DNA from: Candidatus Omnitrophota bacterium
GTDB lineage: Bacteria; Omnitrophota; Omnitrophia; Omnitrophales; Aquincolibacteriaceae
Length of the DNA stretch: 64,000 nucleotides
Assembly: GCA_022709525.1 (NCBI GenBank)
Contig: JAKLIQ010000011.1
Coordinates: 6,040-70,039, forward strand
Direction of reading: 5' to 3'
The notes under the pieces are model-generated. The model made no database searches and was not told the origin of the DNA. It saw only the letters and a list, made by a program, of their open reading frames with translations. Both the position numbers and the translations under genes were made by a program. Within the stretch, counting starts at the first letter, position 1; each line of letters starts with the position of its first letter. Of this stretch, positions 62,801 to 64,000 are shown in pieces.

Positions 62801-63039
62801 AACTGCTCGATAAAAGCGCGCTCTAATTCCGCCTCGCTCTGGTACGCTTTGGCAGTCCGGTATTCGGCAGCATATTCGGCTACCACTGTGCTTTGCGGGT
62901 TTTCCGCCACCAGCTTGTATTCTCTATTGCTTGGCATATTCTTTTTCCAATGGCTCGAAAGTAAGCAGTTTGCCTCGGTAGTATTCGTATTGCTTTCTTC
63001 GAGCATTAAGTTCCGCAGGCAAACCGGCTGACAAGTCAT
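59884..63039 (-). CDS. hsdR: Type I restriction enzyme R subunit HsdR
   Basis: 1051 aa. N-terminal nuclease region, SF2 helicase motifs TTGSGKT (motif I) and DECHRSQ (motif II), C-terminal HsdR domain. Confidence 0.85.
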   Translation of the reverse strand: MTCQPVCLRNLMLEESNTNTTEANCLLSSHWKKNMPSNREYKLVAENPQSTVVAEYAAEYRTAKAYQSEAELERAFIEQLKSQAYEYLPIAAETDLVLNLRKQLEKLNNFTFSDTEWEAFFGGEIANPNQSIAEKTATIQEDYIKNLKRDDGAVKNVYLLRKDKIHENSLQVINQYATEEGRRANRYDVTVLVNGLPLVHIELKRRGVAIQEAFNQINRYQRESFWAGSGLFEYVQIFVISNGTHTKYYSNTTRSEHIKELSEGAIRKGKRTSNSFEFTSWWADATNKPITDLVDFAKTFFAKHVLLNILTRYCVFTTEKQLLAMRPYQIVATEKILSRIEVSTNYKKLGTVGGGGYIWHTTGSGKTLTSFKTAQLVSKLPYVDKVLFVVDRKDLDYQTMREYDKFEKGAANSNTSTAILKRQLEDSNSRIIITTIQKLDRFISRNKGHTIFDGHIVLIFDECHRSQFGEMHAAITKAFKNYHLFGFTGTPIFAVNASSGGRPDFKTTEQAFGDKLHTYTIVDAIADKNVLPFKVDYVSTVHEAEDIEDKKVRDIDREAALVAPERLTNIARYIRDHFDQKTKRNSFYKLRDRRLAGFNSIFAVSSIDVAKKYYAEFKKQLAEAPSDKKLKIALIYSFGVNEEEIDGVTDENSEDTSGLDKGSRDFLEGAIQDYNAMFGTSYDTSSDKFQNYYKDVSERVKNREVDILLVVNMFLTGFDATTLNTLWVDKNLRLHGLLQAYSRTNRILNTVKTFGNIVCFRNLEKATNESIALFGDKEASGIVLLKTYDEYYNGYKDGDREVRGYTSLVKELLEKFPVGERIIGEQNQKDFIRLYGGILRVRNILVTFDEFSGNEILTERGIQDYHSIYIDLYNEFRKADEGEKENINDDIVFEMELIKQIEINIDYILGLVKKYHEDHIKNRELLVDINKAIDSSVELRNKKDLINQFIASLDAHSVVDEDWQKYVEKKKIEELDEIIKHENLDHDETYKFVRNAFRNGSVATTGTALAKVLPPVSRFSPGGERSQKRESVLEKLTRFFERFFDISGGKI

Positions 63040-63448
63040 TCACCAACGCGTCGAATTTATTGAGAATCGTAGCGATGCGTTCTTGTTCTTCGACCGGAGG
63101 AACACTTATTTGCACTCCCTCTAACTTGCCAACAGCAAGGCCAGGTTGAGCGGATTTAGATGCATACTGATTTAGATTCATCAGTGTGAGCATATGAAAT
63201 GCCCAATCGATATTAACATCGTCGTTGCGGGCAACAACCACCGCATGTTCTGTAGCGTAAAACTTTCCGCGAGTGCGTTGCACATTGCCACAAAGCGCGC
63301 CTTGTCGTCCAATAATCAAATAGTTTCCATCGTGGCTGTAACTTTTAACAAAGCCGCGGACCCCATTTCCACCAAAACACGGATATGGATAACATTCGTT
63401 CTCTTCATTTGCGATTTTGATGGCGGGAATATGCTGACCTGCACGCAT
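62924..63448 (-). CDS. hsdS: hsdS distal half (second target-recognition domain plus C-terminal conserved region). Currently in a different frame from the upstream half and would be fused by a change in SSR copy number
   Basis: The ORF2 frame (lowest codon coordinate 2 mod 3) is open upstream through ...A-R-W-A-T-L-G-E-I-F-N-M... up to the repeat; ARWATLGEI matches the canonical start of a TRD. Conserved ...RRKQYEYYRGKLLTF... region. Confidence 0.75.
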   Translation of the reverse strand: MRAGQHIPAIKIANEENECYPYPCFGGNGVRGFVKSYSHDGNYLIIGRQGALCGNVQRTRGKFYATEHAVVVARNDDVNIDWAFHMLTLMNLNQYASKSAQPGLAVGKLEGVQISVPPVEEQERIATILNKFDALVNDLSAGLPAELNARRKQYEYYRGKLLTFEPLEKEYAKQ

Positions 63449-63462
63449 ATTAAATATCTCTC

Positions 63463-64000
63463 CTAGCGTCGCCCATCTTGCTTGCTTGCTTGCTTGCTTG
63501 CTTGCTTGCTTGCTTGCTTGCTTGCTTGCTTGCTTGCTTGCTTGCTTGCTTGCTTGCTTGCTTTGGTATTAAACGTCAGCAGTTGCTCCCGGTAATACTC
63601 GTACTGTTTCTTTCTCGCCTCCAGCTCTGCCTCCAGCTCTGCCTCCAGCTGTGTAAAGGCATCCAGGATTTTCACGATCTCTTGTTGGATGTCAAGCGGC
63701 GGGATGGGAATTTTTATCCCTTCTACAACTGACCGCGCTAACCGAGGGACGCTTGCCCTACGCACCCTTGAAAACAGATAGTTCTGCTGACAAAGCAATG
63801 CGTAATACAGGAATCGACTTTGCAGTTGTTCTGGGCAAACAAAGTAAAAGCAATCGTCAGCCGCCCAAAAATCAACCGTGCTGTATCCAATTTCGCCCGC
63901 CGCACCGGCACTAATAACGAAAGTTGTATTTGCAGGGCAATTGCTTGCCTCATAATAGCCTAACGGAGTCATACTGTTTTGGTAAACCGGGTATTCGCCA
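63463..64000 (-). CDS. hsdS: hsdS proximal half (first TRD plus central conserved region), truncated by a stop 12 nt after the tetranucleotide tract. The 5' end is beyond the window edge
   Basis: ...[44 protein letters not shown]... (HsdS conserved region) followed by (KQAS)7 and DGRR-stop. Lowest codon coordinate is 1 mod 3. Confidence 0.75.
   Translation of the reverse strand, partial: [178 protein letters not shown]
63477..63560. repeat. Tetranucleotide SSR: (CTTG)21 on the plus strand = (CAAG)21 on the hsdS coding strand
   Basis: Counted directly: one unit at 63477-63480, 15 units at 63481-63540, five units at 63541-63560. It encodes KQAS repeats in all three frames with no stop in any frame. 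Confidence 0.95.
63618..63653. repeat. 12-bp tandem repeat about x3 (cctccagctctg) encoding (ELEA)3 in the HsdS central spacer region
   Basis: cctccagctctg cctccagctctg cctccagctgtg; protein [11 protein letters not shown]. Confidence 0.85.

Follow-up and report, generated by a model that had tools for sequence, protein, structure and literature searches.

A putative simple sequence repeat switch in the hsdS gene of a type IC restriction–modification system from an uncultivated Omnitrophota bacterium

A survey of REBASE has revealed that 7.9% of the hsdS genes, which encode the specificity subunit (HsdS) of type I restriction–modification (R-M) systems, contain simple sequence repeats (SSRs), and that these repeats are invariably located between two target-recognition domains (TRDs) of the protein (Atack et al., 2019; PMC7383803). 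The outcome is either a full-length HsdS or a truncated HsdS that dimerises (PMC7383803). Among the genes described, hsdS of Haemophilus (Glaesserella) parasuis contains GCAA[7-29] and hsdS of Pseudomonas aeruginosa contains GCAA[3-16] (PMC7383803). The consequences of shortening an HsdS are best known from the type IC systems. Half-subunits of EcoR124I (delta50) and EcoDXXI (delta C) homodimerise and recognise palindromes made of the TRD1 half-site, and the co-expression of N-terminal and C-terminal truncations of the EcoDXXI HsdS restores the wild-type bipartite specificity (PMC3874165). In NgoAV, a poly-G tract switches the specificity between GCAN8TGC and GCAN7STCA, the downstream hsdS2 fragment is inactive and many strains carry inactive forms (PMC9577141). 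Here we describe an hsdS gene that is divided by a tract of the same GCAA unit. It is found at the end of the window, a stretch of 64,000 nt from a Candidatus Omnitrophota bacterium (GCA_022709525.1, contig JAKLIQ010000011.1), and it is likely that it represents a phase-variable contingency locus in which the SSR acts as a switch within a type IC hsdM-hsdS-hsdR operon.

The AAGC tract and the reading frames of hsdS

The tract occupies positions 63477-63563 on the minus strand and consists of (AAGC)21+AAG, 87 nt in all. Tandem Repeats Finder described this candidate slipped-strand frameshift switch as a repeat of period 4 and 21.8 copies (21.75), with 100% matches, 0 indels and a score of 174, and detected no other long SSR in the 64-kb window. 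A 16-nt probe, (AAGC)4, gave 19 overlapping matches, every one of them inside the tract, with 0.00 expected from 100 dinucleotide-preserving shuffles. In the register of the coding (minus) strand, (AAGC)21+AAG is the same as AAG+(CAAG)21, and AAGC, CAAG and GCAA denote one and the same unit. Because the length of the unit is not divisible by 3 and the tract is pure, each unit gained or lost shifts the frame of hsdS.

The tract separates the two halves of the gene. The 5′ part (63564-64000, minus strand; Pfam Methylase_S, E=1.5e-20) encodes TRD1 and the central conserved helix, D1. This part is cut by the edge of the window; the first 52 codons of hsdS, as well as hsdM, lie past base 64000 and were read from a contig of the Joint Genome Institute (JGI), L001. 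The 3′ part (62924-63476, minus strand; Methylase_S, E=1.3e-16) encodes TRD2 and the C-terminal conserved helix, D2 (..ARRKQYEYYRGKLLTF..), and the two conserved helices are similar to each other. Downstream of the tract and in another frame than the 5′ half, the minus strand reads ARWATLGEIFNMRAGQ...ARRKQYEYYRGKLLTFEPLEKEYAKQ*. This TRD2-D2 frame stays open for 185 codons past the tract; for it to be joined in frame to the 5′ part, the number of AAGC units, n, has to equal 1 mod 3. The tract is flanked by the end of D1 on one side and by 'ARWATLGEI...', the start of TRD2, on the other. The best match of HsdS in the Protein Data Bank (PDB) is the EcoR124II HsdS (7bst_A, E=4.8e-31), with an alignment that is continuous through D1; in the structure-database alignment, the linker from D1 to TRD2 is 'NTK-[ASKQ]n-AR' in this locus and 'KEGEVE' in EcoR124II. 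An earlier note, written by a model from the letters of the window and a list of open reading frames (ORFs), had claimed 21 perfect copies of CAAG at the junction between the conserved central region and TRD2, and the purity of the repeat together with the Pfam and structure alignments confirmed it.

The frames of hsdS were rebuilt in silico for n=14 to 28 AAGC units, and this translation recovered the three phases that the note had predicted. When n equals 0 mod 3, as is the case in the window (n=21), the protein reads ...LLTFNTK(ASKQ)n..KQDGRR and terminates 4 codons past the tract (tail 63463-63476, TAG 63463-63465, minus strand), just as the note described. This TAG overlaps an AGGAG that resembles a Shine–Dalgarno (SD) sequence (63460-63464). 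When n equals 1 mod 3, the frame reads on ...KQARWATLGEIFNMRAGQ... through TRD2 up to the stop at 62924, so that the TRD1 half is fused to TRD2 in a two-TRD HsdS, again as anticipated. When n equals 2 mod 3, the protein ends in ...KMGDARRDI at a TAA (63450-63452, minus strand) that is followed by an in-frame ATG (63446-63448), a possible site of termination and reinitiation. The early stop foreseen for this third phase does exist; the figure of 9 codons given for it includes the stop, and the number of sense codons past the tract is 8. The tract itself, also in agreement with the note, is devoid of stop codons in all frames and encodes a cyclic K-Q-A-S peptide whatever the frame. Start codons are likewise absent from every frame, and the frame of TRD2 runs through AAG, CAA, GCA and AGC codons only.

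Judged from its sequence, this is a type I R-M system of the type IC (EcoR124) family, because HsdR contains an EcoR124_C domain and matches the HsdR of EcoR124, HsdS aligns with its EcoR124II counterpart through D1, D1 carries a 4-aa repeat and the genes follow the order hsdM-hsdS-hsdR, which is the organisation of type IC operons. The hsdR gene (59884-62937, minus strand) encodes a protein of 1017 aa with the Pfam domains HSDR_N, ResIII/SWI2_SNF2, T1R_D3-like and EcoR124_C (E=2.3e-68 for the last), and the comparison of this protein with the EcoR124 HsdR (PDB 2w00/4be7) gave E ~1e-257. HsdM (526 aa) combines HsdM_N and N6_Mtase, and its PADLOC match to MTase_I (E=5.9e-132) is the feature expected of a gamma-class N6-adenine HsdM. 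The stop of hsdM overlaps the start of hsdS (ATGACTAA; L001 8796-8803), and the end of hsdS and the start of hsdR share 14 nt (62924-62937). The JGI contig that extends the locus (L001/L002, 79.8 kb, recovered by exact-protein look-up) gives the complete gene order as a 61-aa helix-turn-helix (HTH) protein, hsdM, the hsdS N-half, the hsdS C-half, hsdR and a GmrSD-like enzyme.

Helix D1 harbours a repeat of its own, a 12-nt in-frame unit present 2.8 times (63617-63650, minus strand; Tandem Repeats Finder, 100% identity) and translated as (LEAE)3; in relatives, 3 or 4 copies are found. The corresponding repeat of EcoR124 is TAEL, and when its copy number rises from 2 to 3, the spacer in the recognition sequence becomes N7 instead of N6. 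The role of the TAEL repeat in setting the spacer length has been documented for EcoR124I/II (PMC3874165). Being its counterpart, the (LEAE)3 repeat is therefore a second source of specificity variation in hsdS, one that does not shift the frame.

The mechanism that we propose starts with slipped-strand mispairing during replication, which would alter the AAGC count in the linker between D1 and TRD2. When n equals 1 mod 3, a single polypeptide TRD1-D1-(ASKQ)n linker-TRD2-D2 would be produced, and this fused HsdS, together with two HsdM subunits, would be specific for an asymmetric bipartite site. In the other two phases, n=0 and n=2 mod 3, to which all the alleles seen belong, the product would be TRD1-D1 with a disordered ASKQ tail. 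By analogy with other type IC systems, such a half-S is expected to homodimerise through D1, which would lead to methylation and restriction of a palindrome made of two TRD1 half-sites. Two specificities of methylation and restriction would then coexist among the cells of the population. The alternation between a palindromic and a bipartite site is predicted because this is how the type IC half-S subunits of EcoR124I, EcoDXXI and NgoAV behave. Switching in vivo, the function of the homodimer, the specificities and the biological pay-off (diversification of phage defence and/or epigenetic regulation) are what we infer, and to apply the term 'phasevarion', which implies epigenetic regulation, to this locus would be an extrapolation from analogous systems.

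Tract length in other assemblies and tracts in related genes

Independent assemblies of the locus differ in repeat number only. With the window copy (n=21) as reference, the contig L001/L002 (JGI 3300010429) aligned over 14,117 bases with 0 mismatches and one 8-nt gap in the tract, corresponding to n=23. A second contig, L003 (JGI 3300009776), aligned over 1,257 bases with 0 mismatches and one 16-nt gap in the tract, corresponding to n=17. A third, L004 (European Nucleotide Archive ERZ795055), aligned over 613 bases with 0 mismatches and begins inside the tract, so its n cannot be read. Values of 17, 21 and 23 without any substitution are what a hypermutable contingency tract predicts and, at the level of assembled sequences, support the hypervariability of the tract. 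The ORF of TRD2 is identical in the four contigs, which come from three samples. Further alleles were searched for by the pattern of the flanks; the metagenome collection gave only the contig that was already known, and the genome collection and the viral contigs gave none.

The search for related proteins was performed with the modelled product of the ON phase, the fused form, and found thousands of HsdS homologs, the best 120 of which were used for a survey of linkers. Periodic linkers that correspond to translated SSRs follow the conserved 'YYRDxLLTF' helix in 20 of these 120 proteins, in both fused and truncated forms. Among the kinds of linker are the pentapeptides SRAEQ and NGTER, encoded by 5-nt SSRs, and ER dipeptides, encoded by GA repeats. 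Many of the closest homologs in this set are three-TRD 'extended' forms of ~580-610 aa, in which an SRAEQ/NGTER 5-nt SSR or a GA repeat (ERER) is situated between the second conserved helix and the third TRD. Shortened OFF versions of the extended genes, of 397-414 aa, are also present among the best 120 (extended and truncated homologs: P0002-P0016, P0068, P0072, P0082, P0083, P0091 and P0106-P0118).

A scan for (AAGC)9, with one genome per species, matched at least 120 species (L006-L125) from many phyla, including many gut and anaerobic metagenome-assembled genomes (MAGs). Among the matches listed, Methylase_S was the commonest Pfam family in the ORF segments that flank the tracts (13/112), followed by classes that are familiar from phase variation, namely glycosyltransferases, acyltransferases (Acyl_transf_3) and adhesins (YadA-like), and by an Eco57I-like methylase, and most of the flanks were without a Pfam match. 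In at least 7 species of Proteobacteria, (AAGC)9-24+ tracts occur in homologous type IC-like hsdS genes, where they are read in the ASKQ frame and lie between D1 and the 'RWxTLGE' of TRD2. The hosts of these genes are Stutzerimonas stutzeri, Ferrigenium sp. and MAGs of Hyphomicrobium, Burkholderiales, Arenicellales, Pseudomonadales and Rhodobacterales. In L098 and L099 (both n=10), hsdS is fused in frame and thus ON, which means that ON-phase proteins with an ASKQ linker exist in nature; L092 and L093 are OFF. On the genomes scanned, the recurrence of (AAGC)n at the junction of D1 and TRD2 across several proteobacterial orders is a new observation. The claim of the earlier note that the tract is unusually long could not be maintained, given the published GCAA[7-29] (PMC7383803) and the n=23-24 of relatives.

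The proteobacterial junctions are near-identical among themselves, whereas the junction in the window differs from them in both DNA and position. The tract in the window begins 3 residues past LLTF, compared with 6-7 residues in the proteobacterial group, and its flanks are different. A further idea, that the window tract and the proteobacterial ones are a single mobile 'CCR-tract cassette', did not hold at the level of the DNA, since the junction and the position of the linker differ and the upstream 150 nt are 48-62% identical. The tracts of the window and of the Proteobacteria may go back to shared ancestry with divergence, or to convergence.

Some of the related tracts are irregular in the assemblies. 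In the Hyphomicrobium MAG (L008 5027-5128), the hsdS tract consists of 13 units, a scaffold gap filled with Ns and another 13 units, and in the Burkholderiales MAG (L084 3038-3184) it consists of 23 + 12 units with point interruptions in the second block. From the gap and the interrupted block it follows that such tracts assemble poorly, and their real lengths may exceed the recorded ones. Another Candidatus Omnitrophota MAG, LacPavin_0419_WC90_MAG_41_16, contains an (AAGC)n tract of at least 18 units (L048 6357-6428), which was discarded as a relative of the locus as it is intergenic and not part of an hsdS. A PAS/histidine-kinase gene (6531-7700) follows it at a distance of ~100 nt, and a stretch of Ns adjoins it; the tract may be an SSR that sets promoter spacing, or it may stem from faulty assembly.

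Alternative explanations

Several observations weigh against the proposed switch. All three alleles whose length could be read are OFF for the fusion, as 17 and 23 equal 2 mod 3 and 21 equals 0 mod 3; under random phase, the chance of finding three OFF alleles out of three is ~0.30. The predicted ON products (n=13-25) have no exact match in the protein collection (nor have the OFF N-halves). The ASKQ linker or tail is longer at the window locus (28-30 residues) than in the ON relatives seen (13-14 residues), a difference that may bear on assembly. Finally, the tract lengths were taken from short-read metagenome assemblies, for which SSRs of 70-95 nt are near the limit of reliable sizing.

The last point leads to the first alternative, which concerns the length variation only. 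The tract would be real, and the values n=17, 21 and 23 would result from collapse or expansion, by the assembler, of a repeat that is nearly as long as a read. Mis-sizing of SSRs by short-read assembly is a known reason for caution (PMC7383803), the contig L004 ends in the tract, the Hyphomicrobium relative has its N-gap in the tract and several relatives end at contig edges. However, three assemblies gave three values with unique flanks on both sides, and similar ranges have been found for the same unit in cultured isolates, namely the GCAA[7-29] and GCAA[3-16] mentioned above (PMC7383803). An assembly artefact is thus an unlikely origin of the variation, albeit one to be reckoned with, and even if true it would leave the anatomy of the locus and the predicted mechanism unchanged.

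Two other readings revolve around the in-frame ATG at 63448, which encodes the Met of ..FNMRAGQ.. and is preceded by the AGGAG at a distance of 11 nt. Gene callers place the start of a 174-aa C-half ORF at this position. Both OFF-phase stops lie just upstream of it, the TAG at 17 nt and the TAA at 1 nt, which makes reinitiation conceivable. The AGGAG, however, is simply coding sequence for the conserved L-G-E motif, and homologs that have no tract share the Met (..LGEVLNMRAGQ.., motif xMRAGQ). According to structure prediction, TRD2 is intact and has a confident fold. The AlphaFold2 model of the C-half encoded in the window has a predicted local distance difference test (pLDDT) score of 89.8 and a predicted template modelling (pTM) score of 0.83. 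In this model, the chain passes from beta-strand 1 (RWAT) through a short helix (LGEI) to strand 2 (FNMRA), with a pLDDT of ~96 in this part, and the residues encoded by the tract are disordered. The Pfam Methylase_S match starts at profile position 8 when the 11 native upstream residues are included and at position 32 when they are left out. This shift in the profile start, together with the placement of the strands by AlphaFold2, implies that the product from ATG 63448 would be a clipped TRD without its first beta-strand. Scans for promoter and terminator consensus sequences around the tract and across hsdM-hsdS found none above the shuffled expectation; a single TTGACA-16-GAAAAT site is present on the minus strand (63695-63668), and the sigma-70 consensus on which it is based may not apply in this phylum. 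The earlier note had set against the switch the possibility that TRD2 is expressed independently from its own promoter and ribosome-binding site. A part of this stood, in that ATG 63448 does have an AGGAG; the remainder did not, as these are codons of a conserved motif, the fold would be clipped and no promoter rose above chance.

Reinitiation could nevertheless add a layer to the switch. The tract may set three states, namely a fused S of bipartite specificity, a palindrome-reading half-S with efficient reinitiation (TAA-N-ATG, n=2 mod 3) and a palindrome-reading half-S with poor reinitiation (n=0 mod 3), and in this way tune the strength of restriction as well as its specificity. What would set the two half-S states apart is how well the clipped C-half and the translationally coupled hsdR are translated. 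This extension, which we put forward tentatively and consider improbable, is suggested by the start-to-stop overlaps of hsdM, hsdS and hsdR and by the position of the OFF stops, 1-17 nt before an in-frame SD-ATG. If the translation of hsdR is indeed coupled, one can speculate that early termination at the tract could lower restriction.

The same ATG is the basis of a second alternative, a split gene in which the N-half and a C-half reinitiated at ATG 63448 assemble in trans and confer bipartite specificity at any n, possibly alongside N/N (and C/C) homodimers, and in which the tract tunes stoichiometry instead of acting as a switch. The proximity of both OFF stops and of the AGGAG to this ATG and the 174-aa ORF annotated by the gene callers would fit such a gene, as would the wild-type specificity regained by co-expressed EcoDXXI HsdS halves (PMC3874165). 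Against it stand the place of the ATG and the AGGAG in the conserved xMRAGQ and L-G-E motifs and the loss, in a C-half that starts there, of RWATLGEIFN, residues inside the Pfam domain that make up strand 1, the short helix and the first part of strand 2. In addition, the hsdS2 fragment of NgoAV is inactive (PMC9577141) and the tract offers no start codon in the TRD2 frame. A split gene is, on balance, quite improbable. The third alternative, a decayed or frozen locus with a permanent half-S or no function, a remnant TRD2 and a tract that is a mutational relic or hitch-hiker, could account for the three OFF alleles, the ON product without an exact match and, by comparison, the many strains with inactive NgoAV forms (PMC9577141), but it is very improbable in view of a TRD2-D2 frame with 185 open codons, no difference between the four contigs of three samples and a confidently predicted fold, a tract that is 100% pure while relic SSRs gather interruptions, an hsdR start/hsdS stop overlap that keeps the operon architecture, the ON alleles of relatives and the ~0.30 probability of three OFF alleles under random phase.

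The defence island and comparison with known systems

The operon that carries the proposed SSR switch is part of an island of ~16 kb with a low GC content (44-47% vs ~53%), which extends over positions 54000-64000 of the window and beyond (L002 ~3000-19400) and is bounded by a tyrosine integrase (54034-55278, minus strand). The GmrSD-like type IV enzyme (57966-59759; PADLOC HEC-05) lies on this island, together with DUF4912/DUF2934/DUF2582 proteins and two HTH_17 genes, and an IetA/IetS defence pair is found on it just outside the window (PADLOC, E=6e-76 and 1e-57). The 61-aa HTH_17 protein directly upstream of hsdM (L002 7545-7730; PADLOC 'mad1', E=3.7e-14) may regulate the R-M operon as a controller or as an excisionase-like protein. 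Direct repeats of the att type were looked for at the borders of the island, and no convincing ones were found. The GC-rich lineage assumed in the earlier note was not recovered, as the host has ~53% GC, the window 50-56% and the R-M island the 44-47% given above. Other features of the window are rimO (40963-42342, minus strand), whose product is 80-85% identical to Candidatus Omnitrophota MAG proteins and has named matches in this phylum only, which places the host in it, a type IV pilus cluster with two PilB-like ATPases (33535-36997) and a PilQ secretin (27123-28721), and the transfer-messenger RNA (tmRNA; 45279-45670).

As far as sequence goes, the locus has the features that define both the SSR phase-variable hsdS class (Atack et al., 2019) and type IC. 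A switch design with the AAGC/GCAA unit has already been described in other bacteria, and no new mechanism is revealed here; what is new is the Omnitrophota host and the setting on a mobile defence island. The literature searched contained no account of phase variation in Omnitrophota. Provided that the tract switches in situ, the bacteria in which SSRs switch the specificity of type I R-M systems, until now host-adapted pathogens and a small number of environmental bacteria in culture, would come to include an uncultivated candidate phylum, with the switch located on a mobile defence island, beside IetAS and a GmrSD-like enzyme. This would support the view that the stochastic diversification of restriction and methylation is a general form of anti-phage bet-hedging in environmental communities, beyond an epigenetic virulence device. 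The locus is also a good marker for the study of contingency loci in metagenomes at the level of reads, and it serves as a reminder that such genes will appear as 'two hsdS fragments' in the annotation of MAGs and contigs.

Among the known systems, hsdS of H. parasuis and of P. aeruginosa share with the window locus, by their published description, the GCAA unit, its site between TRD1 and TRD2, strains that are identical but for the length of the tract and a full-length or truncated outcome, which for the window locus is predicted. In contrast to these bacteria, the host of the window locus is an uncultivated Candidatus Omnitrophota known from metagenomes, and the locus resides on an integrase-bounded defence island. 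NgoAV of Neisseria gonorrhoeae resembles the window locus in that it is a type IC system whose TRD1-D1 half ends in a frameshifting repeat. Its truncated half-S is active on the palindrome GCAN8TGC and its fusion reads the bipartite GCAN7STCA, an outcome that, by analogy, is predicted here too. The repeat of NgoAV is a homopolymer, the poly-G between hsdS1 and hsdS2, whereas that of the window is a tetranucleotide; hsdS2 alone is inactive or incomplete, whereas the TRD2-D2 of the window is complete; and NgoAV has been characterised experimentally, whereas the window locus is known from sequence. The prototypes EcoR124I/EcoR124II and EcoDXXI are related to the window locus by the close homology of HsdR, the alignment of HsdS through D1 and the 12-nt/4-aa repeat of D1, which is TAEL in EcoR124 and LEAE in the window locus. 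They have no frameshifting SSR and a fixed 'KEGEVE' linker between D1 and TRD2 in place of (ASKQ)n, and their truncations are laboratory mutants, while a built-in switch is proposed for the window locus. Lastly, the extended three-TRD hsdS genes of Mannheimia haemolytica (G[n]) and Fusobacterium nucleatum (AAGAC[n]), the class to which many of the closest homologs of the window HsdS among the best 120 correspond, also have an SSR after a conserved helix that gates the next TRD. In the extended genes, the OFF product is a complete HsdS with two TRDs, whereas the window locus has two TRDs only and its OFF product would be a half-S.

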